DNA of 64,000 nt, taken from Bacteroidota bacterium. Its GTDB lineage: Bacteria > Bacteroidota > Bacteroidia > Chitinophagales > Saprospiraceae. The stretch is taken from positions 4,640 to 68,639 of the forward strand of contig JBCBEC010000022.1 of the NCBI GenBank assembly GCA_038528965.1, in the 5' to 3' direction. Within the stretch, counting starts at the first letter, position 1; each line of letters opens with the position of its first letter. The position numbers and the translations under genes were made by a program. Shown here piece after piece: positions 20,636 through 63,632 of this stretch. The notes beneath the pieces are model-generated. The model saw only the letters and a list, made by a program, of their open reading frames with translations. It ran no database searches and was not told where the DNA came from.

Positions 20636-20979
20636 GAGTACCCTTAAAAGGAGTAGTTTGCAGAGGTTCTGAAGTTTAAGATAAGTAGAGTTTTTAGATT
20701 GAAAAACTACCTGTTTCGATATACCGCAAGGGTGTTTCCAAATTCAAGATGAAAACATCCAAATTCGGGATCAGAGCCCCCAAATTGCAGATGATAAAAA
20801 TTAAGATTTTTTTGGCAACTATATTTGAATTAATTCAATATGGAACTATGTAAAACTGGCATTTGCTTCCAATGGATTAAAAACGCGCTTTCTCTAAAAA
20901 TAGCAACACTTATTACCCGCTAAGGGTATCGAGCAAGAATCGGAATATTCCTTCCCGTTTCTTGCTTTTTTATTGAGAT

Positions 20980-21732: not shown

Positions 21733-21840
21733 AAAATAAAACGTAAGTGTTTTTGTGTGTAGTAGTATTTGTTCTAGTAACGATATAATCACCATAGGGA
21801 TTCACCGAGCGGAGAAATATAGGCGATTTTCGGAAAAGAG

Positions 21841-22539: not shown

Positions 22540-22872
22540 GTGATCAGATATTTACTGCTGCAAAAGTAAGGATTCAGCGCCAATGTATTTTGCATGACAT
22601 ATTCCATCACTTACCGCGATTGCAAAGCACGCCATCTGTCCACCCTTGAAGTGCAATTAATAAGGTAGGGTAGGGCTATTTTCGTAAAGTCAATATTTTT
22701 TAACAAGGAGCGATTCCATTCTTTCAAATCCCCAAACTAAAGCCTATCTTTGCGTCCGCCGCAATTGGAACTAAGTTTGCGGCACGGGTGTTAGAAATCA
22801 ACAAAGATGATAGCTTACGCCAATGCGGCAACTTTCACTATCGTTTTTACTTCTAACTTTCACCCAATCCCC

Positions 22873-22944
22873 GGTCCCGTAGTACAACGGATAGTATGTA
22901 GGTTTCCGGAGCCTGAGATGGAGGTTCGATTCCTCCCGGGACCA
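22873..22944 (+). tRNA. tRNA-Arg (anticodon CCG)
   Basis: Manual fold: acceptor GGTCCCG/CGGGACC, D-arm GTAC-AACGGATA-GTAT, anticodon stem TAGGT/GCCTG with loop TTCCGGA (anticodon CCG), T-arm GGAGG-TTCGATT-CCTCC. CCA is not encoded. Confidence 0.85.
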
Positions 22945-23683
22945 CTTCTCTTATTTCAGCCTTGCTGATAATCAGTGGATTAGAACAACAAAAATCCGCG
23001 AGTTGTCGGCAGCGTTGACGCTTTACATGAGGAAGATACGAAAAGGTCAGATTTCTTTGGAGGTCTGGCCTTTTGCGATTTTAGACCCTATGAAGAAGAA
23101 AAACGATAGCTGTTAAGTGGGTGTAAGGAAAGCCAGTCAAGTTTGTTCTTGACTGACTTTTCGTTTTATACCAGTTTGTGATATACTGAAATTAATCTTG
23201 CTTATAGAATAGATGTTTTTTCCCAAGAGGCCTGCTTTGTTCAATATCCTTCAATTGTATTGAGTTTATTTATGTGGTATGATTACATGTGTTCTGCGTA
23301 CATCAAAACTTTTAGATTTTGATTAGGGATATACCTTATAGATTTACGAAAGCCTAAGCAAACATAGTGATAGTTGAAATTCACATAGAGGATTCAGTAG
23401 TCTACTATGGTTCCTATGCTTTCTTGTTTTTCAAAAAATGATAGAATCATAATTTTTACCGATTTAACCTCCCTAAAAATGACTAAGTATGCTATCTTAA
23501 AACTCTATTGTTTTGTCTGAAAGCAGATAGATAGTTTAATGATTTCATAATCATGTAACTAAAAACGGTTCCTAAAAAGTTGATTTGGTTCTCGCTCTGC
23601 AATTATTGTAGTATAGGACTACAACTATCATTTTACTTCTAATTAGAGCATTTGGTGATGCTGGAAACACACGTGCTATTCAT

Positions 23684-44000: not shown

Positions 44001-45229
44001 AACAATGGCTGGCCACATCTAGTGATACCCGAGTTATCATCTGGAATATAAAAGGGGAACAATTACTTACGATACAGTGTAAGCATCCGGTATTGCAATT
44101 GGCCTTTATTCCCAATCGAGACGATTTCCTCTACTGCCTGGATCAGACAGGAACATTATTCTATGTTAAATTGACCCGTTTACAGTTACCCAATCTGTCT
44201 GCTGGTGTTATTAAAGAAGGGCTGCGTTCGATTGTTTCGAATGGGGAATACCAAGGAAATTATCACTTTGTGGGTGTAGAAATGCCACACCGACAGCAGC
44301 GACTCTACTATTGGGTAGCAGATCATACCAGGATTGTTCAAACTAGAGAATGGACAGTTCCCATGCCGATGAATGCTATCATTCCGCTGTCAAAATTAGG
44401 TATGTTAGCAGCGGCGGGTACAGATGGGAATATCTACTTCCTTAATTTGACAGACAAAGATAACTTCACAATAACTCCTCGGGCCCCACAATTAGCTCCC
44501 ATCTCTACTCTAGTTACGGATCAGCAACAGGACTGGTTAGCGTGGGCCTCAGCTCCAAAAACTGATTTACGCTTCAAGACCAGTGACCCAACTATCAACT
44601 TCATGCGATTCAACAATAAGACAGCAAAGAGTTGTCCCGTGGTATTGTATCATCTCGATACCAGAAAAAGTAGAGTGTTAGCCAGTTTCCCTGAAAATGT
44701 TATCCAATTACTATTCCACCCCAAGGAAGAACAAATTCTTATTGCATTAGAAAATGGCCTGATACAGCTCGTTGATTTTCAAGGTGTAATTCACTGGGAT
44801 TCAAAAAAGGATGGTTACCAATTCGGGCAGATCGATAAGATAGCGATCAGCAAAGATGGTAGGCGGTTGCTGATCGGAGGTGAGAAGTTGATTCTCATAA
44901 ACGATTTCAAAGACTTGGATCAACTCACAGCGGCAAAAGAAGGTGTAACCGCTATCGCACATGATCCCACCGGTGGGTATTTCGCCACTGGTTCAAAAGA
45001 TGGTTACCTACAAATATGGGCTGTCGATGGTACGCTATTAATCACATTTTTGAATGGAGAAAGCAACCGCCCAGTAACCTGCCTATCCTTTACTCCAGAT
45101 GGTAAATATCTAGTGGCCAGCCAAGATTATCAAGGGAGCTTTAAATGCTGGCATTCTCTAAAAGGAATGTTTGACACAGTGTTCATTCCTAAGCTTCCTA
45201 TTAGTAATAACAGTAATGCAAATATTTGA
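41015..45229 (+). CDS. Tripartite caspase-like protease / STAND-type NTPase / WD40-repeat protein (1404 aa)
   Basis: Caspase dyad 'VVIYFAGHGE' and 'LILDCCFAGAF'. P-loop 'FLHGSTYTGKKSV' in a ~350-aa NACHT/NB-ARC-like module. The C-terminal ~600 aa has WD40-like units ('FSPDGKYLVASQDYQGSFKCW', 'IAHDPTGGYFATGSKDGYLQIWAVDG', 'LAWSSHEQWLATSSDTRVIIWN'). Starts 8 nt after the kinase-like gene. Confidence 0.75.
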   Translation: MSNQLLQPYFSRHLAFLIGVQEYQYLNDLETPLNDVHDLAEVLKKEHGFQVENPLLNPDKASLEAYIRDYIPQKVKEEKNDRVVIYFAGHGEADINEEGSPQGYLLPSDALSGNTSSSVPMSLLHSVVEALPCQHLLLILDCCFAGAFQWDVKKRGYSKSQMGNRLFRAYFARNAEKKARQVIVSTGDDQKAVDILDRRLDRNSPFAAGLIKGLQGLADNPKNGFISISKLVGYVDTSLEVTLSGNGEVIRQKAFAYTLNNHEHGEFFFCSPYTKISLWDDDYRINPFKGWAAYEEADAYRFYGRDEDMEQLLDTLEQHKYTFLHGSTYTGKKSVVTAGLLPELKSRNLSVCRLIVGQIDQVEFVKQIERYHRVIVICPSDVHLQVARENIKTVLEATAKRSDIHVLCCADTHLYEQLPIGDWAKFGPIESLKLKSLTRLSLRDMIENPLVFRGFGFEPAKLPEIILEELRPTLAPLPLLSATMHATFQDFIAEGRPTRMITLQNFQRTGGVQGVFIKQFKTALEQLDSDARQWVMLLLSRFIQQSDHLVLSRDVQLQELEYEDPTITTHILALLDHLHKAGVLFRKRNTYQFAYPLPISSWPPLQTWLLSIGQDKIDLQRELWLATTKYERSKQNEVRIVGKENSETAEGLWGSHLELAKALTLMHSQPYFFNSQEKAFLTESQAQRESILVEKSLVGAKSIAKHSPNFALRLLENLHRKHPKKKSILNALEELLSNSLFYGVFANPPVTSEAKQFCFHPSGKYLFLLKDQFLEVVNWITGQKNTLSLSTAPIQMQAYREAEAILLLLPGKLHCLDAMLATEWTKEIPEDITSFAIGETTGHVYLMSQLGVVSWITTEGGVYGQQTIEALKVGKFLQVDPKEEYLLMGGQVGASVAHGQLGLFLIKDGHSRWALQQKKKINLLQKLSTRNIGLQAIAFSPDSQIIAVGLGSEQIIFSRTKKKYGEVVLYDLSGQQLALLEGFKGNVLALAWSSHEQWLATSSDTRVIIWNIKGEQLLTIQCKHPVLQLAFIPNRDDFLYCLDQTGTLFYVKLTRLQLPNLSAGVIKEGLRSIVSNGEYQGNYHFVGVEMPHRQQRLYYWVADHTRIVQTREWTVPMPMNAIIPLSKLGMLAAAGTDGNIYFLNLTDKDNFTITPRAPQLAPISTLVTDQQQDWLAWASAPKTDLRFKTSDPTINFMRFNNKTAKSCPVVLYHLDTRKSRVLASFPENVIQLLFHPKEEQILIALENGLIQLVDFQGVIHWDSKKDGYQFGQIDKIAISKDGRRLLIGGEKLILINDFKDLDQLTAAKEGVTAIAHDPTGGYFATGSKDGYLQIWAVDGTLLITFLNGESNRPVTCLSFTPDGKYLVASQDYQGSFKCWHSLKGMFDTVFIPKLPISNNSNANI

Positions 45230-45342
45230 TAACCGTATGTCGGCTCCTATTTACTCCTCATAACGTTACTTCCCGAATAGAGGTAGGCTTTTCTCAGATT
45301 GCTTTTTGTTATCTTTGTTCGCGAGTTTATATACAATTAAAA

Positions 45343-45627
45343 ATGGCAGACCAATCGGCAAAACTTCTGGAAATTTGTTTAGAAAATCCTTTGCTACAGA
45401 ACCTAGTTAAGGCTTTGGCAGAGGAGCTTAAAACAAGTAGTAATGATGAAGATGATTGGATTACAGCTGGGGAGGCAATGACAATACTTCAAATTTCATC
45501 TGCAACAACATTGAAGAAGTACAGAGAACAGAACGAGATCAAGTATAGCAAGCCTTCTGGTATGAAGCGTATCTTCTACAGTAGAAGTTCCATTCTCAAA
45601 TTCTTAGAAAAAAAATCTAATCATTAA
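45343..45627 (+). CDS. Small helix-turn-helix DNA-binding protein (excisionase/HTH_17-like, common on Bacteroidetes mobile elements)
   Basis: Internal start 'MADQSAKLLE...'. HTH-like 'WITAGEAMTILQISSATTLKKYREQNEIKYSK'. Lies at the cargo/backbone junction. Confidence 0.45.
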   Translation: MADQSAKLLEICLENPLLQNLVKALAEELKTSSNDEDDWITAGEAMTILQISSATTLKKYREQNEIKYSKPSGMKRIFYSRSSILKFLEKKSNH

Positions 45628-45631
45628 GATC

Positions 45632-45904
45632 ATGACTTATTCTGGTGACGCTGTATTAGAAGGTTTCAATTCTGGTTATGCTATTGAAAAATATAGGCCT
45701 GATATTGCATCTCAGATAAACAATTCTATTGGAGAAAGTCAGATTGATTTTTTTCGGGGCTTCGTCGCTGGAAGTCAACAGTACATCAAAGAACGTACCC
45801 AATCTAAAACTATCGGTAAGCTTCGTGATATTACCCGGCAAATACCTCGTCCCACTCAGAAGGGTAAGGACAGGCCCGATAAGGGCTTTGAGATAGATCG
45901 TTAA
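45632..45904 (+). CDS. Hypothetical protein
   Basis: ORF only. Confidence 0.3.
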   Translation: MTYSGDAVLEGFNSGYAIEKYRPDIASQINNSIGESQIDFFRGFVAGSQQYIKERTQSKTIGKLRDITRQIPRPTQKGKDRPDKGFEIDR

Positions 45905-45905
45905 C

Positions 45906-46952
45906 CTATGGCCTTTCTCGTAGTTTCTTTTTCACAAAGTTGACGAAAGCCCCATCTGCCTTTTCTGGGTTAAATCCATTCATAAGCTCATATGAAAACT
46001 GCGTGTGTAAGTTATCAAAGGACCAAGCCGTTCCTGATTGTTCGACCATCTGTCTCACCTTTTGTAGGGTTTCTGGCTTGATACTTGGAAGGTCCTTTAG
46101 CTTCATGACCGGTCTAAGTAAGCCAAATTCTACCTTGTCCTGTTCGTTTAATCGTAGCCAATAATCGGGTAAATGATCGTCCTTCTCGATCTGGCGAATG
46201 AAGTAGCGGAACTTCTTCAGCGAAGAAGTAGAACCAGTCTTTTCTTTGAGCTTTGTTAGCGAAATACTCCAGCTTTCCTGTTTGCCACAGTGCTTTCGAG
46301 CAATCTCATACAAGCGTCGCTCTAGCGCTTTTCCGAGCCAAAAATAACGACGACTTATAGTGAGTACCTCTTTACCGATGATAGAATTGAAGAACCATTC
46401 GGATAGGGTGATTTCCAAGCGGAGCATCCGGTTTTTTACCCTACTGCTTTCAATGATTTCGTAACTATCAATCAGACCAAAAGCGGAAGTGATTTCTCGT
46501 TTATCGGTCTTAATATTCGTTTTGATACTTACCCCTTGTAAGCGATCTAATGCCTTTTTGAGGAGGCCGTAGCCTTTGCCATTGGTTGGGCGGTTTGTAG
46601 CTACTAGGAGATCGTGACTGGATATTCTTAGTGTTCGTTTTGGTGTATTTCCTCTATTGATTGCATCCATAAGTAAAGACGCACAGTAGAGCAATACGTC
46701 TTTATCGAAAATAGTGGGTAGGCCCAATACGCTAGGAGCTATTCGTAAGGTGCTAGTACCATTGGTGTATTCCAATGTCCTAACATCCCGATTTTTGGAT
46801 AGCGAGAAAATGGGATGTTCCATTGAAGCAATGTCATCCTTAAGCGGCAGATTGTCAAAAATATCGGCGATGAAGAAGTCCTTGGTGGGGTGCCTTTCTG
46901 GAGCGAGTGTTGGCTTTACGGGCTTTAATTCTAGTGATTGCTGCATAGTCAT
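45906..46952 (-). CDS. repA: Replication initiator protein (RepA-family of Bacteroidetes plasmids/mobilisable elements)
   Basis: N-terminal 'FFIADIFDNLPLKDDIASMEHPIFSLSK' is characteristic of the replication-initiator-A family. Iteron-like direct repeats lie immediately upstream. Confidence 0.55.
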   Translation of the reverse strand: MTMQQSLELKPVKPTLAPERHPTKDFFIADIFDNLPLKDDIASMEHPIFSLSKNRDVRTLEYTNGTSTLRIAPSVLGLPTIFDKDVLLYCASLLMDAINRGNTPKRTLRISSHDLLVATNRPTNGKGYGLLKKALDRLQGVSIKTNIKTDKREITSAFGLIDSYEIIESSRVKNRMLRLEITLSEWFFNSIIGKEVLTISRRYFWLGKALERRLYEIARKHCGKQESWSISLTKLKEKTGSTSSLKKFRYFIRQIEKDDHLPDYWLRLNEQDKVEFGLLRPVMKLKDLPSIKPETLQKVRQMVEQSGTAWSFDNLHTQFSYELMNGFNPEKADGAFVNFVKKKLRERP

Positions 46953-46954
46953 TC

Positions 46955-47125
46955 TTCGTAACTTCGAGAACTAGCATAGCAGCTAGAATATCTTTGGCAA
47001 TATCAATTCGCAACTTCGAGAACCATCCCCAAAAGCGTTCGGAACTCTAGGAACCGATGTACGGAACTTCGGGAACTTTGGTTCGATACTTTAAGAACCT
47101 TCGTACGGAACTTTAGGAACCGCCC
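46955..47125. repeat. Iteron-like direct repeats upstream of repA (candidate origin)
   Basis: 'aacttcgagaac' appears twice (46960, 47012). 'ggaactctaggaacc', 'cggaacttcgggaac' and 'cggaactttaggaacc' (47041-47121) are variants of GGAACTNNNGGAAC. Confidence 0.5.
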
Positions 47126-47312
47126 AGTTGCGAAAAGTCAGGCTGAGCCTGGGTTTTAACGGGTGATTTCGTGCCGTAACACTACACTAACACACTATAT
47201 AACGTAAGTTATAACACTAGCAAAAGTGGCGGGTGCTTCGCACTGATTTAATAAGGAATTCGCTGACGCGAATCAGTTTTGGTATTTGCTATTGAAAGGA
47301 AAAAAGAAGAGG

Positions 47313-47912
47313 TTAGCCAAAGAAGTAGACAATGCCTATGATGAGCGTCACCATAATAACTGCAACAGCAAAGAATTTCAAAACATCGCCGATTTCCTTG
47401 ATTAGTGATGATCGGGAACCCTTCGTTTTTTCTTTTGGGCTGCGATGATCTTCCAGGAGTCGAGTATGTTGCGAAATGCTTTTGGTCAGTTCACCTACCT
47501 GTTGCTGCATAAGATGTTCACGCGCCTCTGCTTTACTGTCTCGATCTTGCGCCTCTAGTCGTTCTCGTATGCGTTCAGATTTCTCTTGTTCCAGTTGGGA
47601 CTCCAAGGATTCGATTTTATGCTGAAGTAGGGCAGCATTCACCATGTTTTGAGTTGTGCGCGGCTGTATTTTTGTGCTAGTTTTAGCTATTGTATTTGCG
47701 GCATTGCTCTTGTTAGACAGTATTTCCTGCATACGATCTGGGAACACCCGCTGCAATTCTATCAGGCGAATAACCTTATTTCCATTCTCATCTTTTTCAA
47801 AAGAGATACCGTCATTTCCAGCCGTTTTAGTACGCTTGTTAAGGGTACTGCGTGACTTGAATCCAAGTAGCTGCGTAGCCTCTGAAATGGTATATTTTTC
47901 CTTCATTTCCAT
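47313..47912 (-). CDS. Hypothetical coiled-coil protein with C-terminal TM; possible N-terminal HTH
   Basis: Start 'MEMKEKYTISEATQLLGF' is preceded by AGGAGG on the minus strand. Basic and coiled-coil middle, TM 'FFAVAVIMVTLIIGIVYFF' at the end. Divergent from the primase gene. Confidence 0.45.
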   Translation of the reverse strand: MEMKEKYTISEATQLLGFKSRSTLNKRTKTAGNDGISFEKDENGNKVIRLIELQRVFPDRMQEILSNKSNAANTIAKTSTKIQPRTTQNMVNAALLQHKIESLESQLEQEKSERIRERLEAQDRDSKAEAREHLMQQQVGELTKSISQHTRLLEDHRSPKEKTKGSRSSLIKEIGDVLKFFAVAVIMVTLIIGIVYFFG

Positions 47913-48046: not shown

Positions 48047-49042
48047 ATGCCAGCAAAAGTCATCAATAATACACAGTGGGCAAAGGAGAATATTTCTATG
48101 CCAGAGTTGCTGAGTCGCTTTGGCCATGAACCAGTACAGGCAGCTAAGAGTGGAAATGAGCTATGGTATATTTCTCCGTTTCGCTACGAAAAAGAACCTA
48201 GCTTTCATACCTCCTATTTGGGAGGAAAATGGATATGGAATGATTTTGGCCGAGGTGATGTACAAGGGAAAGGGACGGTAATTGGGTTCTTGGAACTTCA
48301 TGAAAATGTAGACATCAGCGAAGCACTCCAAATTCTGAAGAATCTGTTTCCACATAGGGGGACACCCGCTTCGATGGATGTGCTTAAGCGATTACCACTT
48401 TTCAAAGACATCGTACTTCATCAGCCGATGGAAGAGAAAGAAAAGGACTCCCTCGCTCTAGAAGTTTTGGATGTCAAAGAACAGATTTGGGACAGGAATT
48501 TGATTGGTTACCTATCAGGGGAACGGTGCATCAATCATCAACTGGCCCTACCTTACTTGCAGTGCATTAAATACAGGAATGTACGGACTGACAAAACCTA
48601 CCAAACCCTAGGCTTTGTCAATCTTTCGGGAGATTATGAGTGTAGAGATAAGTATTTCAAGGGCATACTGAGAGCACCCGATGCACAAGGCAGAAATACA
48701 ATTAAAGACATCTCCTTTGTACAAGGAACAAGCCAAGATGAAGTAGCCGTATTTGAGGGCTTCATGGATTTTTTGACGGTATTGACAATCAAGGATGTTC
48801 CAGTGCTCCCAGTGGACGTGGTTGTTCTGAACATGGTAAATATGAGACAGAGAGCGATGGAGTTTATCCGCTCGCAGAAGTACAAAACCGTATACACCTT
48901 TTTTGATAACGATAATGCAGGAGAGAAAACGACTCAACTATTTCAAGACAAGTTAGGAGAAGTAGTGAAACCTCAGAACCATCTTTATCAAGGCTACAAG
49001 GATTACAACCAGTACTATCAGGAACAAAAGAGAACGAGCTAG
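48047..49042 (+). CDS. Toprim-domain DNA primase-like protein
   Basis: C-terminal 'VYTFFDNDNAGEKT' is the Toprim acidic motif. The N-terminal region resembles primases of Bacteroidetes conjugative transposons. Confidence 0.55.
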   Translation: MPAKVINNTQWAKENISMPELLSRFGHEPVQAAKSGNELWYISPFRYEKEPSFHTSYLGGKWIWNDFGRGDVQGKGTVIGFLELHENVDISEALQILKNLFPHRGTPASMDVLKRLPLFKDIVLHQPMEEKEKDSLALEVLDVKEQIWDRNLIGYLSGERCINHQLALPYLQCIKYRNVRTDKTYQTLGFVNLSGDYECRDKYFKGILRAPDAQGRNTIKDISFVQGTSQDEVAVFEGFMDFLTVLTIKDVPVLPVDVVVLNMVNMRQRAMEFIRSQKYKTVYTFFDNDNAGEKTTQLFQDKLGEVVKPQNHLYQGYKDYNQYYQEQKRTS

Positions 49043-50649: not shown

Positions 50650-51009
50650 ATGGCTTATAACAATAACGTAAAACTAACTGGCAACCTTGGAGGAGAAGCT
50701 AAGATCATCGAAGGCGAAAACAAAACCTTTGCTGCTCTACGCCTTGCCACAACTGATACCTATAAAGACAAAGAAACGGATGAGTGGAAAGACAAGGCGA
50801 CTATTTGGCATGATGTCATTGTCTTCAACCCTGCTCTGATCGAGGAAGTAAAAGCCTACAAGAAAGGTGTACGATTAGAGATTGACGGTAGCCTTTCTTA
50901 TCGTGAATTTCTAGTTAGTATAAACGGTAAGGAGGTCACTAAAAGGGAAGCATCTATTCTTGCTCACAAGATTGAACAAGCCCCTTTAGTGAAAAAAGAT
51001 AAAGCATAG
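50650..51009 (+). CDS. Single-stranded DNA-binding (SSB-like, OB-fold) protein
   Basis: 'VKLTGNLGGEAKI...FAALRLATTDTYKDKETDEWKDKATIWHDVIVFN...LEIDGSL' follows the SSB OB-fold pattern. Preceded by 'aaggagaat'. Confidence 0.5.
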   Translation: MAYNNNVKLTGNLGGEAKIIEGENKTFAALRLATTDTYKDKETDEWKDKATIWHDVIVFNPALIEEVKAYKKGVRLEIDGSLSYREFLVSINGKEVTKREASILAHKIEQAPLVKKDKA

Positions 51010-51305: not shown

Positions 51306-51698
51306 CTACTGTGTAGTCTCAAATCGAATAGAAGTGATTTCTACTTCTCCCTTTTTAACTTCAGTGAAAGAAGCCTCGGGCTCTTTGATCCAGAGAACGC
51401 GATGATGGATGATGTTATCGAAGAGAGATTGTAAGTTCTTGCCAATGATAGTGACCTGTATTCTCGTTGTACATAATTGTATTTCGGTGTCTCCATCGTA
51501 GTCCATTGGGGATACAAGGTCGTGGTAGTGGATTGCCCGTTGCTCTCCCAAAGCAGTTGTGAACTTAACGGCTACCGCCATACCATCCCGTTCGTGAGCC
51601 AGGCCAAAGAAAGGGTTGTTCCCAAGTCCTTTGAACGCAGAGGAACCTTGCTTGTAGCGGATGAACTCTGGAATACTACTTTGTTCGGACTGGGACAT
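51306..51698 (-). CDS. Hypothetical protein
   Basis: ORF directly downstream of the relaxase gene on the same strand. Confidence 0.35.
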   Translation of the reverse strand: MSQSEQSSIPEFIRYKQGSSAFKGLGNNPFFGLAHERDGMAVAVKFTTALGEQRAIHYHDLVSPMDYDGDTEIQLCTTRIQVTIIGKNLQSLFDNIIHHRVLWIKEPEASFTEVKKGEVEITSIRFETTQ

Positions 51699-54501
51699 GC
51701 TTTACGGGTTGTGGAGGTTTCGAAACAATACTGATAATGTCGTCTTTCTTTTTTTGCCACTTTTCGCCCAGGTTTGCAACCTTAGATTTACCGGTGCGGT
51801 AGATGGCACCAATCACCTTGAGCTTTGCCTTTATACCTTGTTCTTGCTGTTCTACGGATGAAGCTAGCTCGGAAGCAGTCATGCGTTGGCTAGAACGCTG
51901 TACGGCTTCCATCAACCCTTGCTTATCATCGGTGTGAATGGAGATCGAGAACTTCCCCCGTGAGACAGAAACATAGAACTGTTCCTTACTCGCCGCCCGC
52001 CCCGTCATAGCCGATTGCATCACAATGACACGGTTGACAGACTTTCCCTGCGAAGCGGGAGAGGTCGTGTAATAACCATGTGTCAGATTCCCGAAATGAC
52101 GACCTAGAGTAACCTCATTGCGTCCAGTAGAAGCACGGATATTTCCCTTTTTGTCAAAACCAGTTACCGTCAGGATATTACCGTTGTTAAGGCGTTTTTT
52201 TTCGTTTGAAAAACCATTATCGGTGATACGAACTTGATCACCTACAGCTAAAGAAGTTTGCGTTGTCCGATAGACCGAAAAATGCTTGGCTGCGCCAAGG
52301 GGCAATGTTCTTTCTTCTGTTTTACCTACTGTCGCAATACGTATTTCACCGTTTTCGGTTTTACCCAAAACCTGGTACTTAGTGCCACGTTTTAAGCCAC
52401 CCTTCAAATTTTGGGTAAATTGCACGACCATTCCCTCTTGATAGCGAGTTGGGTCTTGCTTTTCGGCATCGGTGAAAGAAAGGTTTTGCTGGGTTTTGAA
52501 AATGCGCTCTTTACCACGAATTATACCTTCTTCCCGAAGCTTTTCGCGAATGGTTTCAGTTACTGCTTTCCCTTGCTTGTGCGTGGTGGCTACAATGAGT
52601 ACATTTTCCTTTTGCTGTATTGCAGATGTGTATTCAGCTGCTACTCGTTCGCGGGCTTCGTCAAAGCTATCCGCTTCTTTGACAGCCCCCATTTGATCCA
52701 GCGTTTCCAAACCACTTTCTAGGTTTCCACTGGAAATGGATTTGACAACACTTCGATAAGCATCGTTTTTCTGGCGTTGTATCTTCGTTATGGTAGCAGC
52801 TTTGATACCACCAAACTGTTCAATAATGCGTAGTGCATCCCCTCGTTCTACGGAGCCATGCTGCTTAATATCCCCCGTCAGCAGAATACGAGCATTTTGT
52901 TCTTCGGCTACTTTGATAATCCGATTCATAGTTGGATTGCCAACCATCCCCGCTTCATCAATCCAGATAACGCCATCTTTGACACTAGCTTGCAGCTTAT
53001 CACTTTGCAGTAGTTCGGCAATGGTAGTGGCATTTTCAAAGCCATCGCCTCGCTGTACTTCACGAGAAGCAGCTGAGGATGGTGCAAAGGCACCAAAAGC
53101 GATGCCTTGTTCACGTACACCTTCGGCTACTTCTTTGATCGACCAAGTTTTTCCGGTACCTGCCCCGCCTGCTACGACTGTGATGAAATCGCGCGAGTTG
53201 AGTACATGCTGTACAGCTCCCGCTTGTTCTCGGGTTAGCTGTGGGTTTTTAATCTCATAGCCTGGATTCAACGGCTGAAATGCACCTCTGCCTTGACGTG
53301 CCTTATCACGTAAAAGCTTTTCTTCTCTAACCGAATCGCGAGTGGTATAGATGGTTTCTTGAGTTCTATTATCGGTGCCTTTGAGTAAATCATCACGACT
53401 CTCCAGCGATACCCGGATGGTTTCGGGAGTAGTTGACCCTATGCTCCGCTTAAGAGCTAGGATCATCAGCTCTTTATCGGTAGCTACAGACTTTCTTTCT
53501 AGCGCATGATTGAGCGCATAGCTGACGGCCTCATCGGGGGGCATCTCTTTTTTCTTTTCAATAGCATTCGCCCTTTCGGGCGTAATTGCACTTCCACTAG
53601 AGGTATCTTGCTTAGCGTTGTGTATTAAATCCAGTTCAGACTCATTGAGTCGACTGGTCCATTCCTGGTGTAGCTCTTCACGATTATATCCGGTGCGCTT
53701 TCCTGCTCTGGTTTTGGCACCAAGCTCTGCTTTATCCTCCTCGTAGGTCAGGCCTAGTTCAGCAGCTTTCTCATTAATCAGGCGCGTTCGATTGGAAAAT
53801 TTGTCAATGGTGGAACGACCAAACCCAGCCAGTTCAAAGTCTCGTTCATTGCGTTCAACCTGGTATCCCATAGCCTGCAAATTGGCCGCTAATCGGGAGT
53901 TGAAAACTGTCTCGAAATAGGACGCATTACGTTTGATGTCACCAAATTGAGCAGCCTTGATTCGTCTTTCTTTTTCATCATAAGTAGCATTGAATACAAA
54001 TACATGTTGATGTAGATGTGGGTCAGGAATGCCACCAACTGGCCGTGCATCTGTGTGCGTGAATGTACCCCAGAGTAGATTTTCTGTGCTCCGATTTGTA
54101 TTCTTTCCTCCTGCTCTTACCCGTGTAGCGGCGTTTTGCTCGATTTCCAGCATAGTTGTATTCACCGCAGTATCAAATGCACGGAGAATGTCATTATCTT
54201 TAGTTTGCGCATAAACAATTGAGACGGATTTGGGTACTGAGAAAGTGAAGTCATAGCCCACCCGTCGCGAGCTGGAATGCCGTGCAGTAAGTTGTTCGCC
54301 AGAGACCGGATTTTGGTTCTGAGCGATAGCTGCAAAGTCGTCTCTTTCTACGTCCCCACTCAGGCCGATTCGCTCTGCTAATCGACCATGCCACTGGCCG
54401 ATTATTTCGCCCTTTTCGGCGTAATAATCCGATTTGGTCAAACCTTCGCTAAAGTACTTGGTAGCACCAGATGCTGACTTACTAACGGTAATTCTAAGCA
54501 T
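51676..54501 (-). CDS. MobF-family conjugative relaxase fused to TraA/TrwC-type helicase
   Basis: N-terminal 'MLRITVSKSASGATKYFSEG...YYAEKGEIIGQWHGRLAERIGL' is the TrwC relaxase start. The metal-binding 'HTDARPVGGIPDPHLHQHVFVFN' is the 3-His motif. Helicase Walker A 'VVAGGAGTGKT' is followed by C-terminal AAA_30/UvrD-like blocks. Confidence 0.8.
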   Translation of the reverse strand: MLRITVSKSASGATKYFSEGLTKSDYYAEKGEIIGQWHGRLAERIGLSGDVERDDFAAIAQNQNPVSGEQLTARHSSSRRVGYDFTFSVPKSVSIVYAQTKDNDILRAFDTAVNTTMLEIEQNAATRVRAGGKNTNRSTENLLWGTFTHTDARPVGGIPDPHLHQHVFVFNATYDEKERRIKAAQFGDIKRNASYFETVFNSRLAANLQAMGYQVERNERDFELAGFGRSTIDKFSNRTRLINEKAAELGLTYEEDKAELGAKTRAGKRTGYNREELHQEWTSRLNESELDLIHNAKQDTSSGSAITPERANAIEKKKEMPPDEAVSYALNHALERKSVATDKELMILALKRSIGSTTPETIRVSLESRDDLLKGTDNRTQETIYTTRDSVREEKLLRDKARQGRGAFQPLNPGYEIKNPQLTREQAGAVQHVLNSRDFITVVAGGAGTGKTWSIKEVAEGVREQGIAFGAFAPSSAASREVQRGDGFENATTIAELLQSDKLQASVKDGVIWIDEAGMVGNPTMNRIIKVAEEQNARILLTGDIKQHGSVERGDALRIIEQFGGIKAATITKIQRQKNDAYRSVVKSISSGNLESGLETLDQMGAVKEADSFDEARERVAAEYTSAIQQKENVLIVATTHKQGKAVTETIREKLREEGIIRGKERIFKTQQNLSFTDAEKQDPTRYQEGMVVQFTQNLKGGLKRGTKYQVLGKTENGEIRIATVGKTEERTLPLGAAKHFSVYRTTQTSLAVGDQVRITDNGFSNEKKRLNNGNILTVTGFDKKGNIRASTGRNEVTLGRHFGNLTHGYYTTSPASQGKSVNRVIVMQSAMTGRAASKEQFYVSVSRGKFSISIHTDDKQGLMEAVQRSSQRMTASELASSVEQQEQGIKAKLKVIGAIYRTGKSKVANLGEKWQKKKDDIISIVSKPPQPVKHVPVRTK

Positions 54502-54729
54502 GTTTTAGCTCGTTTTGACTGGTTTAATTATAGTTACAGGCGTCTCCCCTTAGCACAGCTAGAGGACTTATAGGCAAGGTAGCAGCGATTGGAAATCAAT
54601 GCAATAGGAGGTTTTTGGAAAACCCGGGAAAACTGAAATGGTGCCGGTTAGATCGTGCCATTTCAAACACTGTAAAGAGTAGATTTGGCACTGGGCATTT
54701 GCTATTGAAAAGAAAAAGCGTTAGAAAAA

Positions 54730-56217
54730 ATGAATAGTAGTATCGGTAAAAAGGTTACCAACCTTGATCATCCATTAATCAGTTTTTCGAATCATCCGGA
54801 TGACACTTGGACTGTTCGCGATGCAGTTCGAGGAGTACAAATCTTTGGTGGTATTGGATCAGGTAAAACTTCAGGCAGTGGGCGAGCGCTTGCAATGGCT
54901 TTTTTACGGTCTGGTTTTGGTGGAATTATTCTCACTGGTAAAGTTGACGAGACGAAGCTTTGGATAGAATATGCAAAGAAAACGGGACGAAGTAAAGACC
55001 TGTTGGTTTTCAGTGAGAATAGCAAGTACCGATTTAATCCTTTAGAATACGAATTAACTAGGGAGGGTGAAGGAGCAGGTCAGACTGAAAATATTGTAGC
55101 TCTCTTTACGTCCCTTGCAAAAATGGGTAATCGCCTTAGCGGATCGGGAGGTGGAAGTGGTGATGATCCATTTTGGGACATGGCTCTTCAACGCTGTATC
55201 AAAGCAGCGGTTGATTTGCTGAAATTATCGAAGCAAGATATTACCGTTGCTAATATGGCTCGCTTGATACGAGAGGCACCAACTGGCGAGAACTACCTCT
55301 ATCAGTATTATGAACTTAGTCGCCTTGCCAATGAAGGCAATGAAGAAGCTTACCAGGAACTCAATAAATGGGCACAACAGAGTTTTGCAGTTCACTGCAT
55401 GGTCTGGGCCGAGTCTTATGAATTAAAAGGTCAGGATTTAAAGGCATTTGAAGTAGTTTCTAGCTATTTCTTAAGCGACTTTGCAACCTTGGCTGAAAAG
55501 ACAAGAAGTTCCATAGCAGAATACTTCTACGCTTTTGCTAATCCATTTCGTTCAGGTCTACTAGCAGAGTTCTTTGCTGGCGGCACGACTAAGGACATAT
55601 TGCCAGAAGTAACCTTCAAAGGGAAAATTATCATTTTGGATTTCCCCGTCAAGAAGTATTTACAATTAGGTATCTACGCTCAAGCGATTTACAAGCGTAT
55701 ATGGCAGCAAGCAGTGGAAGTACGAGATGTCAAGCGAAATCCAGTACCCGTTTTTATGTGGGTAGATGAAGCACAATATTTCCTAAATGAAGAGGATATG
55801 ATGTTTCAGACTACAGCCAGGAGTTCCAAAGCTTGTACAGTGATGCTATCGCAAAACATTTCTAATTACTACGCTACTATTGGTGGTAAGAATCCAAAGG
55901 AGCGCGTTAATTCACTACTCGGTAATCTAGCTACAAAAATATTCCACGCGAATAATGATTACGTAACCAATGAGTGGGCTGCCAATACTATTGGAAAGAC
56001 CTTTCAATCAAGAACATCCTCTAGTGTCGGTAAGTATGACTCTGTTTCGGTTTCCGAATCATTGAACTATCAGGTAGAGCCACAAGAATTTACGGTCCTT
56101 TTATCCGGTTCGGTGATCAATGATTTTGACGTGGAAGGAGTTGTAACTGTTGCAGGGAAGAAGTGGAGTAATGGGAAGAACTTTATCAAAGTAGCCTTTA
56201 ATCAAAAAGCAATATGA
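54730..56217 (+). CDS. VirD4/TraG/TraD-family type IV coupling-protein-like ATPase (no N-terminal TM)
   Basis: Walker A 'IFGGIGSGKTSGSG' and Walker B 'VFMWVDEAQYF'. Length and order match T4CP/MobC-like ATPases. Divergent from the relaxase gene. Confidence 0.55.
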   Translation: MNSSIGKKVTNLDHPLISFSNHPDDTWTVRDAVRGVQIFGGIGSGKTSGSGRALAMAFLRSGFGGIILTGKVDETKLWIEYAKKTGRSKDLLVFSENSKYRFNPLEYELTREGEGAGQTENIVALFTSLAKMGNRLSGSGGGSGDDPFWDMALQRCIKAAVDLLKLSKQDITVANMARLIREAPTGENYLYQYYELSRLANEGNEEAYQELNKWAQQSFAVHCMVWAESYELKGQDLKAFEVVSSYFLSDFATLAEKTRSSIAEYFYAFANPFRSGLLAEFFAGGTTKDILPEVTFKGKIIILDFPVKKYLQLGIYAQAIYKRIWQQAVEVRDVKRNPVPVFMWVDEAQYFLNEEDMMFQTTARSSKACTVMLSQNISNYYATIGGKNPKERVNSLLGNLATKIFHANNDYVTNEWAANTIGKTFQSRTSSSVGKYDSVSVSESLNYQVEPQEFTVLLSGSVINDFDVEGVVTVAGKKWSNGKNFIKVAFNQKAI

Positions 56218-59867: not shown

Positions 59868-60415
59868 ATTAAATTCTTCCAACGAGATTTTGAGCAAGCT
59901 ACTGACGCGTACGAAGGGTATTTCTCCGCACTAAAGAATGCGGGTAAACCAGTTCCTCATCAACACATTATTGACTATGCTTACCTAAAAGAGTTGGCAA
60001 GTGATTATTCGGGTGCAATGGAAATTTTGTCATGTGAATCACAGAACACTAATAGGTGTTTTGAGTTGAGAAAAAAGCAAGGTATTAAGCGGCATATGCT
60101 TAGGTTTCATTGATCGGAGAGCATTATTATTGTTCTCCTCATCTACGAGATATTGCATATCAATTTGTACGGAGTTTTACTGTTTCTGACGATGGTTGTC
60201 CCTCAAGTTTCTATTGGGTCAATCCTCCCTTTTTCAGCTACACCAAGATACAGCTTGTCTCACCCTCTGCAAGTCACGCTTCGACTTAGATCAACAATTT
60301 TTTGAGACAAGCCGCAATAAATGGCTGCTCTAGACTGGCACAGGTCTCTCCTGCACTGAATACAGGTTCCGCAAAAAGGGCAGATGCCCAATTAACAACT
60401 TTAAGAAAAGGAACC

Positions 60416-60952
60416 ATGACTAAGCAGAAAAATACATCCACCGACACTTACCAAATATATGTAGCCTCTCTCTCCGATTACAATGCAGGCATCCTTCACG
60501 GCGAATGGATAGAACTTGAAGGCCTCAACACAGATGAAATCCAGGAAGAGATTAACCAAATTCTCCAATCCAGCCCATACGCCAAGCAGTACGGCGAAGC
60601 AGCCGAAGAATGGGCGATACACGACTTTGAACTTGGCGGTATCCGCATCTCTGAATATGAAAGTCTAGACACGATTGTCAGCATAGTAGAAGCACTCACC
60701 GAGCACGGTGAAGCCTTTGCGATCTATTACAACAATGTAGATGACCTGGAATTTGCCAATACCCACTTTGCAGATGCCTACGCAGGTGAATACGATTCTT
60801 TTCTAGACTATGCTACCGAGACCTTTGACGAACTCTACGCCCACTCCATTCCAGAAGGCTTACGTATTTACATTGACTATGCTGCCTTTGCCCGCGACCT
60901 GGATGCTGAAGGGTACTTCCTTGAAGATGGTTATGTCTTCCGTCCTGTTTAG
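60416..60952 (+). CDS. ardA: Antirestriction protein ArdA
   Basis: 'YQIYVASLSDYNAGILHGEWIEL...EEWAIHDFELGG' matches the ArdA signature (YVasLadYNnG.lhG.Wi.l ... EEw.ihDyE). Highly acidic. The internal Met at 60416 is taken as the start. Confidence 0.7.
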   Translation: MTKQKNTSTDTYQIYVASLSDYNAGILHGEWIELEGLNTDEIQEEINQILQSSPYAKQYGEAAEEWAIHDFELGGIRISEYESLDTIVSIVEALTEHGEAFAIYYNNVDDLEFANTHFADAYAGEYDSFLDYATETFDELYAHSIPEGLRIYIDYAAFARDLDAEGYFLEDGYVFRPV

Positions 60953-62170: not shown

Positions 62171-62728
62171 GTGAAAATCGGATATGCAAGAGTAAGTACC
62201 AAAGACCAAAACCTCTCTTTACAGAAAGATGCGCTCCAAAAAGAAGGCTGCGAACTCATCTTTGAAGAAAAAGCGAGTGGGACCAAATCCGACCGACCGG
62301 AATTGCGCCGAATGATCGACCAACTCCGCAAAGGTGATCTGATTATTATTTGGAAACTGGATAGACTTGGGAGGTCACTTCGTGATTTAGTCAACCTCGT
62401 GACCGAAATACAAGATAAAGGAGCAGGGCTAAAATCGCTCAATGACTCCATTGATACCACTACGCCACAAGGCAAGCTGACCTTTCATCTATTCGCGGCA
62501 CTAGCCGAATTCGAGCGAGATATTATCAGTGAGCGGACCAAGGCAGGATTAGAAGCGGCTCGTGCCCGTGGGCGAAAAGGTGGTCGTCCAAAAGGGCTTT
62601 CAAAGGAGGCACAGGATAAGGTGATCATTGCTAAATCACTCTACGCACAGCAAGAAATGTCTGTGACGGAGATTTGTCGGTATTTAGGTATTGTACGGAG
62701 CACATTTTATAAATACCTACGCAGCTAG
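62171..62728 (+). CDS. Small serine recombinase (resolvase/invertase, Hin/Gin-like)
   Basis: GTG start after 'taggag'. 'KIGYARVSTKDQNLSLQ' carries the catalytic Ser. 'LIIWKLDRLGRSLRDL' and a C-terminal HTH 'VTEICRYLGIVRSTFYKYL' complete the pattern. Confidence 0.85.
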   Translation: MKIGYARVSTKDQNLSLQKDALQKEGCELIFEEKASGTKSDRPELRRMIDQLRKGDLIIIWKLDRLGRSLRDLVNLVTEIQDKGAGLKSLNDSIDTTTPQGKLTFHLFAALAEFERDIISERTKAGLEAARARGRKGGRPKGLSKEAQDKVIIAKSLYAQQEMSVTEICRYLGIVRSTFYKYLRS

Positions 62729-62789: not shown

Positions 62790-63632
62790 TCATGCATCAG
62801 TTTTCGCGCATTCCTCAAACTGAGCCATCTGCTCTCTGAATACATCCACTAATAATACGTTGACTACTAAGTAAAATTTCGCAATCGCATCCAGATCATT
62901 CGCAACGCGTCGTTGCTGCCGTTTGATCTTGTCAGAAACATCGCCTTCCAGGTGCTCACGATATACTTCCGTTTTTGCTTCTTCTGATGGTAGGTAGTCA
63001 AGTATTTCCAATTGGGCTTTAACACTAAGCAGGTCTTCATCTACGAAATCTCCTTTATGCGCAATCGCATTTCGTACCGTACGAGCCTTGCTTAGCCTTT
63101 CATAAAAGTCGGCTAGTAAGTCTAATATTTTGGTGCCTTCTAACACTGGTGACCTCTTGACTTGATTATAAAACACCTTGTCTCCTGGTTCAGCGATGCG
63201 GTGGACAAGTTGAACCAAATCCACAACCTGGTCAAATAAAAGCGTGAGTCGTAAGAAATGATTTTCGATATGATATTGTAAGTAGTCTGGATAGTGGATG
63301 TCCGTACGTTCCCGATAACTAGGGTCTGGGACTTCTTCTAGGAATTTTCCTACTAACTCAAATTGGCGCAGGGTCTTCATAATAGCGTCATGCCGGCGGA
63401 ATAGAGCAAGTACGTACTGGTCCTTTTCAGATAGGGGTTCCCGTGTAGTGAAGCCTTTACCTTTGGACCTCGGTTGAATCCCACGGGCAGCAAACACCTG
63501 GCCTAGTTCTTTTTGAACTACTTTATGAAGTAAATCTGAGTCGAGAGGCGTGGATTCGCTATTCATGGTTGGTGTTGTCTTGTCTGATGGTTGTAACTTT
63601 TTCCACTTATGAAAAGGCTTAGCGCCACCCAT
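62790..63632 (-). CDS. HEPN-motif (Rx4H) Abi-like hypothetical protein adjacent to type I R-M
   Basis: 'TVRNAIAHKGDF' contains the R-x4-H HEPN signature. Abi/HEPN genes are commonly embedded in hsd loci. The start could be the internal Met at 63566. Confidence 0.4.
   Translation of the reverse strand: MGGAKPFHKWKKLQPSDKTTPTMNSESTPLDSDLLHKVVQKELGQVFAARGIQPRSKGKGFTTREPLSEKDQYVLALFRRHDAIMKTLRQFELVGKFLEEVPDPSYRERTDIHYPDYLQYHIENHFLRLTLLFDQVVDLVQLVHRIAEPGDKVFYNQVKRSPVLEGTKILDLLADFYERLSKARTVRNAIAHKGDFVDEDLLSVKAQLEILDYLPSEEAKTEVYREHLEGDVSDKIKRQQRRVANDLDAIAKFYLVVNVLLVDVFREQMAQFEECAKTDA

Follow-up and report, generated by a model that had tools for sequence, protein, structure and literature searches.

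A probable iteron-type replication module in a mobilizable element integrated at tRNA-Arg in a Bacteroidota chromosome

The repA gene and its upstream region

The 64-kb stretch of Bacteroidota DNA analyzed here (the window) carries on its minus strand a full-length open reading frame of 348 aa counted from the first ATG (Table 1). The start annotated by NCBI lies two codons downstream, at 46946, which gives a protein of 346 aa, and the sequence is identical to that of a Bacteroidota MAG protein which NCBI names replication initiator protein A. The original prediction of a RepA-type initiator was borne out by Pfam, where the RPA model (PF10134) matched the protein over its full profile (positions 1-228 of 228) with an E-value of 1.5e-83 and a score of 280.3 bits against a cut-off of 27; NCBIfam returned no meaningful match to RepA or to the 199-aa protein encoded on the other side of the intergenic region. 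All family-invariant residues are retained in RepA, and comparison with its 87% relative at locus L007 yielded a dN of 0.079 and a dS of 1.72 (dN/dS about 0.05). These sequence comparisons indicate that repA is intact and under strong purifying selection.

A sequence search of the PDB did not find a RepA relative, and a predicted structure was therefore used together with Foldseek. The AF2 model of RepA is of moderate confidence (mean pLDDT 72.5); its top match was to domains 2-3 of RctB (E-value 3.6e-7, probability 1.0), with further matches to RepE54 in its iteron DNA complex (E-value 5e-4) and to a Rep WH1 domain. TM-scores were low (0.28-0.35), and the fold assignment leans mainly on the Foldseek probability. 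RepA, a member of the RPA family, is predicted with moderate confidence to have the tandem winged-helix initiator fold, in keeping with the inclusion of RPA among the winged-helix initiator families (bioRxiv 10.1101/2024.09.03.610885). The best structural matches, RepE of F and RctB of Vibrio chromosome 2, act through direct-repeat iterons and autorepression (reviewed in PMC4980987, PMC6090056). They share no detectable sequence similarity with RepA, and RPA proteins have an extra C-terminal helical region.

Upstream of repA, the iteron core GTTCYYRRAGTWNCG occurs in six copies between 46957 and 47120, all of them on the repA strand. About five direct repeats had been predicted here; the repeats are present, with a count of six, and the two motifs originally noted, GGAACTNNNGGAAC and AACTTCGAGAAC, are real and represent the plus-strand view of this one iteron family. 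Four cores are arranged in tandem (47106-47120, 47084-47098, 47062-47076, and 47040-47054) with a start-to-start spacing of exactly 22 bp, equal to two helical turns, and the remaining two lie closer to the gene. A search of both strands of the window returned these six matches only, against 0.01 expected from 100 shuffles, an expectation to be read in light of the search pattern having been drawn from the six copies themselves. An iteron-type oriV is recognized by at least three helix-phased direct repeats of about 17-22 bp beside a rep gene; found here were four 22-bp units and two proximal copies.

The sigma-70-like site between iterons 5 and 6 is a candidate autoregulated repA promoter, as judged against the sigma-70 consensus, from which Bacteroidota promoters differ. 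Further upstream, the block with three GTGTTA motifs, although its AT enrichment is modest, is a candidate DNA-unwinding element. No DnaA box (TTATCCACA, allowing at most one mismatch) was found in 46950-47320. Such boxes are not universal among iteron origins. The 13-mer at the outer edge of the region has a second exact copy at 54698-54710, 20 nt upstream of the start of the coupling protein gene. It was considered as a possible shared regulatory site; some copies, however, lie inside the TrwC coding sequence.

Table 1. Features of the replication module and of the surrounding element (coordinates are those of the window).
Feature	Coordinates	Strand	Evidence or remark
tRNA-Arg(CCG)	22873..22945	+	Left junction (attL) at 3' end
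HTH_17 (excisionase/AlpA-like) DNA-binding protein	45226..45627	+	Convergent on repA; conserved neighbor
90-aa ORF	45632..45904		Conserved neighbor convergent on repA, paired with HTH_17
repA, predicted winged-helix replication initiator	45906..46952	-	Pfam RPA PF10134, dN/dS, AF2 model
Iteron 6, proximal	46957..46971	-	Directly downstream of -10-like hexamer; ends 4 nt before first ATG
Sigma-70-like match TTGCCA-16-TATGCT, TG extension	46973..47000	-	Between iterons 5 and 6; candidate promoter
Iteron 5, proximal	47009..47023	-	Directly upstream of the candidate promoter (-35-like hexamer)
Iterons 1-4, four tandem 22-bp units	47033..47120	-	GGTTCCTAAAGTTCCGTACGAA type
AT-rich block (about 70% AT), three GTGTTA motifs (TAGTGTTATAAC...TAGTGTAGTGTTACGG)	47175..47222	-	Conserved; candidate DNA-unwinding element
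Palindrome GATTCGCG-TCA-GCGAATTC	47257..47275	.	Conserved; outer edge of origin region
13-mer TTTGCTATTGAAA	47285..47297	+	Invariant there in all aligned relatives
199-aa protein AAFP77_18195	47313..47912	-	Upstream of origin, co-directional with repA
Toprim/CHC2 zinc-ribbon primase	48047..49042	+	Conserved neighbor in L007, L008, L009, L095
Single-strand DNA-binding protein (SSB)	50650..51009	+	Conserved in relatives
TrwC-type (MOBF) relaxase-helicase	51676..54501	-	TrwC E-value 2.7e-69
Type IV coupling protein-like ATPase (T4CP)	54730..56217	+	TraG-D_C; TrwB_AAD_bind borderline
ArdA anti-restriction protein	60302..60952	+	Establishment function of transferred DNA
Small serine recombinase (resolvase)	62171..62728	+	Present in relative too

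Boundaries and gene content of the element

The placement of this module within an integrated element, as originally proposed, was confirmed by three features: the site is empty in a conspecific, the att sequence is duplicated, and a tyrosine integrase marks the far end. The empty site is seen in L092, a conspecific contig recovered from another sample, which shares 99.8% identity with positions 18640-22945 of the window and departs from it exactly past the 3' end of tRNA-Arg. Beyond that point L092 continues with a terminator and then with a PilO-like operon, which belongs to the right flank. From the element-bearing sample, contig L093 contains the same right flank, then a 15-bp repeat of the tRNA end, and then the gene for a 439-aa tyrosine integrase (Phage_integrase), which adjoins attR beyond the window. 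The att core is the last 15 nt of tRNA-Arg (TCCTCCCGGGACCAC, 22931-22945), with its second copy at the L093 junction. Probes of 21-23 nt did not detect the tRNA 3' end a second time, either in the window or in L010, as the att core is only 15 nt long and attR lies outside the window; attR was located through the empty-site contig. GC content showed no sharp mark at the element boundary. Consecutive NCBI accessions place RepA (..932), RadC (..955), the integrase (..959), and a flank gene (..961) on one 110-kb contig, and a count based on these accessions gives about 42 genes in an element of about 56-59 kb, of which about 1-4 kb, comprising one gene entirely and two more in part, is unseen. Taken together, these sequence comparisons show the element integrated in the tRNA-Arg 3' end of a Bacteroidota (Saprospiria-like) chromosome. 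Its cargo is rich in conflict and defense genes, and its presence in one sample and absence in another suggests recent mobility of this large cargo.

The relaxase and coupling protein genes that had been claimed for the element were both recovered by Pfam (Table 1), the relaxase gene lying 4.5 kb from the iteron array with its own intergenic region. A Pfam search for type IV secretion and mating-pair genes (VirB4-type ATPase and others) found none in ORFs of at least 100 aa of the element within the window, nor among the L010 genes, with three of the about 42 genes not fully seen. With a relaxase and a coupling protein but no type IV secretion genes found, the element is classed as mobilizable (IME) rather than self-conjugative (ICE). 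The serine recombinase is a candidate for multimer resolution of a circular form.

The sequence of the 199-aa protein reads as having an HTH-like segment at its N terminus, a coiled coil, and a transmembrane helix at its C terminus, and the protein occupies the position where relatives have parA and a small parB-like gene. Neither Pfam nor PHROG gave a match to it, and the same two collections yielded no match to the small hypothetical proteins of the element. Unlike in those relatives, a ParA/parB-like pair was not found beside the origin in the element, which makes stable plasmid-like maintenance less likely than transient replication.

Conservation of the origin and related modules

One point on which the original prediction stood or fell was conservation of the repeats at the loci of repA homologues. 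They are conserved there: close relatives have this very sequence upstream of repA, and the 22-bp architecture extends across the family. A best lag of 22 bp upstream of repA was found at 69 of 74 homologous loci (43-88% RepA identity), compared with 3 of 74 coding controls. Close relatives of RepA were drawn from the protein database and a metagenome scan; a protein search of genome contigs with RepA alone returned only alphaproteobacterial relatives of about 46% identity. The same iterons are present at L007, L008, L009, and L011, and L095 has an altered second half-site. Identity to L007 and L011 is 92-94% in the iterons and 88% in the GTGTTA block, against 54% in the spacer; iterons and AT-rich block are conserved while synonymous sites of repA are saturated. 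The copy equivalent to iteron 6 is found next to the start codon in every aligned relative, and across the family the repeat sequence shifts with RepA clade. In relatives bearing ParA, this intergenic region also contains a separate family of repeats (TTTCGTGC), which adjoin parA.

A close match in origin plan comes from the RPA-type iteron plasmids of Proteobacteria, such as the small RepA plasmids of Rhodobacterales, as exemplified by Roseivivax pTHAF197b_e (NZ_CP045323.1), a complete 4.6-kb circular plasmid on which RepA is the only annotated replication gene. Its RepA belongs to the same Pfam family with about 47% identity to that of the element, and its origin follows the same plan, with a recognizable AT-rich GTGTTA block, 3-6 tandem 22-bp iterons starting GGTTCC, and two proximal copies abutting the start codon, the start-proximal one corresponding to iteron 6. 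The two origins differ in the second half of the iteron and in a DnaA-box-like TATCCACA, which is present in the plasmid and not in the element. Plasmids with RPA-type RepA and iterons are free replicons of Alpha- and Gammaproteobacteria, whereas the replicon described here is integrated at a tRNA gene in a Bacteroidota chromosome. The RPA-type plan of conserved GTGTTA block, 22-bp iterons, and a promoter-proximal pair of copies is conserved between the mini-plasmids of Alphaproteobacteria and the islands of Bacteroidota.

Related modules also occur in an integrated context. A Saprospiraceae MAG has the same backbone (integrase, resolvase, T4CP, TrwC, SSB, primase, RepA, and HTH_17) at tRNA-Met, RepA, HTH_17, parA, and primase adjoin tRNA-Gln in an 8.87-Mb contig of another relative, and a further module sits within a 3.2-Mb contig. 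Additionally, a 6.5-kb circular contig encodes a RepA 67% identical to that of the element. The recurrence of the backbone at tRNA-Met and beside tRNA-Gln argues against a one-off plasmid capture. Of the two possibilities raised together at the outset, these gene arrangements favor an element dedicated to integration, with the replicon in its core, over a captured plasmid.

Among described elements, the Tn4371-family ICEs of Betaproteobacteria (Cupriavidus, Ralstonia, and Delftia) carry a pVS1-like repA-parA-parB proposed to stabilize or replicate the excised form, are self-conjugative through trb/traG mating-pair genes, and integrate with an 8-bp att site (PMC2789088). By description they resemble the present element in being integrated and encoding a plasmid RepA, which in their case is pVS1-related and accompanied by ParA; the element differs in its MOBF relaxase, its lack of a secretion system, and its tRNA att site. 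As neither trb/T4SS genes nor parA were found in it, the element is an analogue of the Tn4371 family and not a member. The functional model is SGI1, an IME whose excised form replicates from a rep gene and an iteron oriV (PMC7433901, PMC5704250) by means of a theta-type initiator, although that initiator belongs to the Rep_3 superfamily and not to RPA (PMC5704250). SGI1 further differs in its gammaproteobacterial host, its dependence on IncA/IncC helpers, and its unrelated sequence and backbone.

Function of the replication module

We consider positions 45906-47300 to be probably the vegetative replication module (repA and an iteron-type oriV) of a mobilizable element integrated at tRNA-Arg(CCG). 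By analogy with the iteron replicons of the RepE, pi, TrfA, and RctB type, we infer that the element replicates autonomously after excision. The integrase and the HTH_17 protein would excise the element, whereupon RepA monomers would bind iterons 1-4, open the AT-rich block next to them, and load the helicase of the host. The excised circle would then undergo theta replication, in which the primase and SSB of the element may assist. Such replication would protect the excised form from loss at cell division, and the replicated circle would be the template for mobilization via the secretion system of a helper. RepA bound to iterons 5 and 6 would repress the repA promoter, and autorepression together with iteron pairing (handcuffing) would restrain firing of the origin at low copy number, also in the integrated state.

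The main competitor to this interpretation is that the replicon does not support autonomous replication, being instead a regulatory or stabilization module or a recently silenced plasmid remnant, with the element persisting only by integration and by relaxase-driven rolling-circle copying in transfer. There is precedent, in that repA-parA-parB of the Tn4371 family has been described only as a putative stabilization system of unproven replication role (PMC2789088) and ICEs such as ICEBs1 replicate from oriT using their relaxase (PMC5812530); the absence of ParA from the element points the same way, as does L009, which has the look of a reduced module, a relaxase being absent from the 10 kb on either side of repA. 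We nevertheless regard this explanation as unlikely, since purifying selection on RepA and the conservation of iterons and AT-rich block against saturated synonymous sites speak against a silent replicon, as does the presence of the full architecture seen in small plasmids that must replicate with it, and a phased 22-bp array with a conserved AT-rich block at its side is arranged as in an origin and not as in a simple operator. Considerably less probable is firing of the origin in place, as a secondary chromosomal origin or for local amplification of the island and its defense cargo, before or without excision. Nothing in the sequence would bar RepA from acting on the integrated origin, repA has its own promoter-like site, and a defense-rich cargo could gain from higher dosage; yet the layout of iterons and autorepression is standard for plasmids of limited copy number, and the integrase, the excisionase-like HTH_17 gene, and the resolvase are what would be expected if the excised circle replicates.

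Since relaxase, coupling protein, and two HTH genes lie nearby, one could suppose that the repeats are not RepA iterons at all and serve as an oriT or relaxosome site, a partition centromere, or an operator for an HTH protein, and the TTTCGTGC repeats of ParA-bearing relatives in the same intergenic region could be taken in the same sense. This is very improbable, and oriT and centromere were rejected, given that in 69 of 74 loci, irrespective of neighboring genes, the 22-bp arrays accompany the RepA gene, that one is present on the non-mobilizable pTHAF197b_e with no annotated relaxase or partition gene, and that the repeats change with RepA clade while the ParA-associated repeats stand apart and the relaxase gene is distant. 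Least credible of all is the notion that the window derives from a large plasmid and not from a chromosome with an integrated element. The source is a 110-kb MAG contig and the left flank has no universal essential gene, but the conspecific contig joins left flank directly to right flank at an intact tRNA-Arg and terminator, the 15-bp att duplication and the integrase mark the far junction, and homologous modules lie within megabase-sized contigs (3.2 and 8.87 Mb); the whole contig as a plasmid was rejected on the empty site, the att duplication, and the integrase.

With the module read as the replication system of an integrative mobilizable element, the finding leaves current concepts unchanged, as it is already established that ICEs and IMEs commonly encode replicases, theta-type ones being present in many ICEs (about 40%) and various IMEs (PMC6107060, PMC5704250). 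An integrated element keeping a plasmid replicon is here a real but ordinary case. Its value lies in being a clean and delimited one on the continuum between plasmids and integrated elements, with its integrase, its two att junctions, and the corresponding empty site all identified, in a phylum, Bacteroidota, for which few descriptions of such hybrids exist. The 1.4-kb repA-oriV fragment may in addition serve as the replicon of vectors for Saprospiria-like Bacteroidota. More tentatively, and with the odds in our estimate somewhat against it, the element may represent a widespread and apparently undescribed Saprospiria/Bacteroidota family that integrates at tRNA genes, is mobilizable (MOBF and coupling protein), carries defense cargo, and possesses a fully functional RPA/iteron replicon shared with small free plasmids of the same clade, switching between plasmid and integrated lifestyles. 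The origin architecture of GTGTTA block and GGTTCC-type 22-bp iterons, which alphaproteobacterial plasmids have as well, would then point to a replicon of unusually broad host range. If this is true, the replicon of the family could seed genetic tools for bacteria that are hard to manipulate.

Replication initiator and probable origin

The repA gene encodes a protein of 348 aa (346 aa in the NCBI call, which begins at codon 3 and labels this Bacteroidota MAG product 'replication initiator protein A'). RepA matched the Pfam RPA profile (PF10134) from end to end with 280 bits (E 1.5e-83), confirming the RepA-type initiator of the original prediction, and it retains all invariant columns of a 70-sequence alignment. 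Comparison with the homologue in L007, a locus from a relative, gave dN 0.079, dS 1.72 and dN/dS ~0.05, with synonymous sites near saturation. No relatives were found in the PDB by sequence; the AlphaFold model (mean pLDDT 72.5, N-terminus disordered) matched RctB domains 2-3 (E 3.6e-7), iteron-DNA-bound RepE54 (E 5e-4) and a Rep WH1 domain there, and a recent survey counts RPA among the winged-helix initiators (bioRxiv 10.1101/2024.09.03.610885). Taken together, these results show that the replication module is intact, conserved and under selection, and they support its fold class.

Six copies of GTTCYYRRAGTWNCG lie within 360 nt upstream of repA on the repA strand; the location and repeat motifs had been predicted correctly, but their number had been put at about five. 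The iteron pattern gave exactly 6 matches on both strands of the 64-kb window against 0.01 expected from shuffles, and as it was built from the six copies themselves, the informative part is the absence of anything similar elsewhere in the window. Iterons 1-4 are 92% identical between the window and L007 and the AT-rich GTGTTA block 88%, compared with 54% for the spacer between them. A sigma-70-like site (TTGCCA-16-TATGCT; Bacteroidota promoters depart from the sigma-70 consensus) is flanked by iterons 5 and 6, and this putative promoter thereby has the classic arrangement for autorepression.

The palindrome GATTCGCG-TCA-GCGAATTC is kept in L007, L011 and L009 and partly in L008 and L095 (all loci of relatives with RepA homologues), and was flagged as terminator-like on the + strand. 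The 13-mer TTTGCTATTGAAA occurs in two exact copies, one invariant across all aligned relatives and the other 20 nt upstream of the coupling-protein start, and may be a shared regulatory site. Related elements have its core TGCTATTGAAA at further places, among them the stretch immediately preceding the gene that follows the integrase in L096, a locus from a Saprospiraceae relative, but copies also fall within the TrwC coding sequence.

Features of the element (window coordinates)
Feature	Position	Strand	Remark
tRNA-Arg(CCG)	22873-22945		follows left-flank genes
Region just inside attL	22946-23683		~740 nt
Cargo	23684-45229		~22 kb, between attL and backbone
repA	45906-46952	-	348 aa
Iteron 6	46957-46971	-	same core
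Iteron 5	47009-47023	-	same core
Iterons 4, 3, 2, 1 (cores)	47040-47054, 47062-47076, 47084-47098, 47106-47120	-	tandem, spacing exactly 22 bp
GTGTTA block	47175-47222		AT-rich
Palindrome	47257-47275		between 13-mer and AT-rich block
13-mer, copy 1	47285-47297	+	outer edge of origin
199-aa protein	47313-47912	-	beside origin
130-aa ORF	51306-51698	-	directly after TrwC gene
13-mer, copy 2	54698-54710	+	
ArdA anti-restriction	60302-60952		
HEPN (Cthe_2314-like) protein	62790-63632	-	adjoins resolvase

Integration site and gene content

Ordinary genes of Bacteroidota (CHU_C/PKD proteins, pullulanase, two-component systems, a LytTR regulator) occupy the leftmost 22.5 kb of the window. L092, a conspecific contig from sample SRR22824299 retrieved by the exact sequence of the LytTR regulator, matches window 18640-22945 at 99.8% identity and departs from it immediately past the last tRNA base, continuing into a terminator hairpin and a PilO-like operon. 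The element-bearing sample SRR22824309 contains the 318-aa protein of this operon as well; there, contig L093 has the same flank and terminator and, beyond them, 15 nt copied from the tRNA end (TCCTCCCGGGACCAC), followed by a tyrosine integrase of 439 aa. This empty site and these junctions show that the element is integrated at tRNA-Arg, in agreement with the integrated element originally predicted. NCBI accessions of the source MAG are consecutive on one 110,024-bp contig, from the SPFH protein (..923) through a 90-aa ORF (..931), RepA (..932), the 199-aa ORF (..933), a 319-aa ORF (..943), RadC (..955) and the integrase (..959) to the flank gene (..961), and the contigs continuing the window rightward (L010 and L100) carry HsdM/S/R, a NACHT protein, RadC and a repeat-rich secreted protein. 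From the junctions, the accession order and these contigs, the element therefore begins at 22946 and ends at roughly 78-82 kb of the window coordinates (~56-59 kb, ~42 genes, three of them incompletely seen). Sample SRR22824309 has the element, whereas in SRR22824299 the tRNA-Arg site lacks it; the two samples are 99.8% identical in the left flank (L092 against the window) but only 95% in the right flank (L093 against L092). The locus may thus have gained or lost the element recently, or have recombined between strains. The region just inside attL has no ORF of at least 100 aa and shows several hairpin-like stretches by eye; it is a candidate that may hold arm-type sites for the integrase.

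The predicted relaxase and coupling-protein genes are both present, the relaxase being a MOBF-type TrwC. No VirB4-type ATPase or other mating-pore family was found in the window part of the element and L010 (three genes incompletely seen), and by gene content the element is classed as integrative and mobilizable, with its own relaxase and coupling protein, and not as a self-conjugative ICE. The 130-aa ORF, which has no family match, slightly overlaps the end of the TrwC gene, and a similar-sized ORF occupies the same position in L007, L008 and L095.

Three cargo proteins are caspase-like (Peptidase_C14): one of them carries a GUN4 fusion, and another is joined to a STAND NTPase and WD40 repeats (1404 aa). 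The cargo also includes a TPR histidine kinase with a LuxR-type regulator, an SPFH-domain protein, DUF4407, a dynamin-like GTPase, a PP2C phosphatase and a kinase-like protein. PADLOC returned generic models only (caspase, TPR, PD-T4-6), and the region looks like a conflict or defence island. Past the window end, L010 1-9868 encodes a complete type I restriction-modification system along with the NACHT NTPase and RadC; with ArdA, the element has restriction as well as anti-restriction functions.

The replicon among relatives

RepA homologues form more than 100 clusters at 60-87% identity in the protein database, and DNA around close relatives was fetched for comparison of upstream repeats. The iteron GTTCCTRAAGTTCCG recurs in identical layout in L007 (RepA 87% identical), L011 (88%), L008 (72%) and L009 (68%); L095 (64%) keeps the first half-site GTTCCTRAA and has ACCACG as the second. 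De novo repeat search recovered 3-6 tandem 22-bp units, then 1-2 wider-spaced proximal copies, at nearly every locus, with repeat sequence varying by clade. Within 400 nt upstream, the best self-similarity fell at exactly 22 bp in 69 of 74 loci, compared with 3 of 74 size-matched coding controls. The same plan is found on pTHAF197b_e of Roseivivax, a complete 4.6-kb circular plasmid whose RepA (47% identical) is its sole annotated replication gene: a TAGTGTTAATAGTGTTAC...GTTACGG block, GGTTCCGAAAGGTGCGAA in three units of 22 bp, and two proximal copies directly against the ATG. This plasmid carries a DnaA-box-like TATCCACA, whereas no DnaA box was found in the window origin at ≤1 mismatch. The repeats are therefore conserved upstream of repA homologues, on which the original prediction had depended, and by sequence comparison the 22-bp array is the conserved origin architecture of the RepA family.

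RPA-type plasmids of Proteobacteria (~47% identity) are the closest sequence relatives of known lifestyle. A RepA 67% identical to that of the window is encoded on L021, a 6513-bp contig whose 127-bp terminal overlap indicates a circle and which is probably a plasmid; its iterons are 22 bp of different sequence (GGTGTATCTAAA), and its other genes encode a MobC/NikA-like protein, an IS1595 transposase and a Gp49-like toxin. With this circle in the same RepA clade, plasmid and integrated forms would coexist within it.

The original prediction had also offered a captured plasmid as an alternative. A 223.8-kb Saprospiraceae MAG contig has an integrase 58% identical to that of the element and, 28 kb away, a RepA with 64% identity; the genes between the two and on either side run in the order RadC, ArdC, resolvase, T4CP, TrwC, SSB, primase, parB-like, parA, origin, RepA, HTH_17, tRNA-Met. 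HTH_17 and RepA stand directly beside tRNA-Gln on an 8.87-Mb contig, the same module lies mid-contig on one of 3.2 Mb, and the longest contigs with integrase and RepA homologues are equally long in four cluster pairs. This recurrence of a conserved backbone at different tRNA genes is unlike a single capture event and argues for an integrative-element family with the replicon as a core part. In L096, two tyrosine integrase genes (391 and 441 aa) lie back to back at 8447-11326, the first being followed by a BsuBI/PstI-type restriction-modification pair; they may represent two elements in tandem at one site.

In L008, L009 and L095 the origin is adjoined by parA and a small parB-like gene, and the stretch from parA to the origin holds multiple TTTCGTGC(T/C)A repeats (L008 9440-9590, L009 9480-9580, L095 9310-9380) that resemble a partition centromere or operator. 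The window element has neither these genes nor these repeats, and in the window and L007 the 199-aa protein stands in the place of ParA/ParB. Its sequence, read by eye, starts with an HTH-like segment, continues as a long coiled coil and closes with a transmembrane helix at the C-terminus, and has no meaningful family match in Pfam, PHROG or NCBIfam; such a predicted membrane-anchored DNA-binding protein adjoining an origin is unusual.

Proposed replication and significance

From knowledge of iteron replicons (reviewed in PMC4980987, PMC6090056) and of ICE/IME biology (PMC5812530, PMC5704250, PMC7433901), we infer that after excision RepA monomers would bind iterons 1-4, open the adjoining GTGTTA block and bring in the host helicase to start theta replication. 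The element's primase and SSB may help replication or serve transfer instead, RepA would be autorepressed through iterons 5 and 6, and multimers would be resolved by the element's resolvase. Because there is no ParA, transient rather than stable plasmid maintenance appears more likely here.

The plasmid-type replicon in an integrated element is real, and its original interpretation was correct. Surveys report replicases for ~40% of ICEs (PMC6107060) and for various IMEs (PMC5704250). In concept the element stands closest to ICEs of the Tn4371 family, with their pVS1-like repA-parA-parB set (PMC2789088), and to the IME SGI1, which has rep and an iteron oriV and has been shown to replicate once excised (PMC7433901). 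A limited literature search found no description of this Bacteroidota element family; the element adds to the already known kind of replicon-bearing integrated elements.
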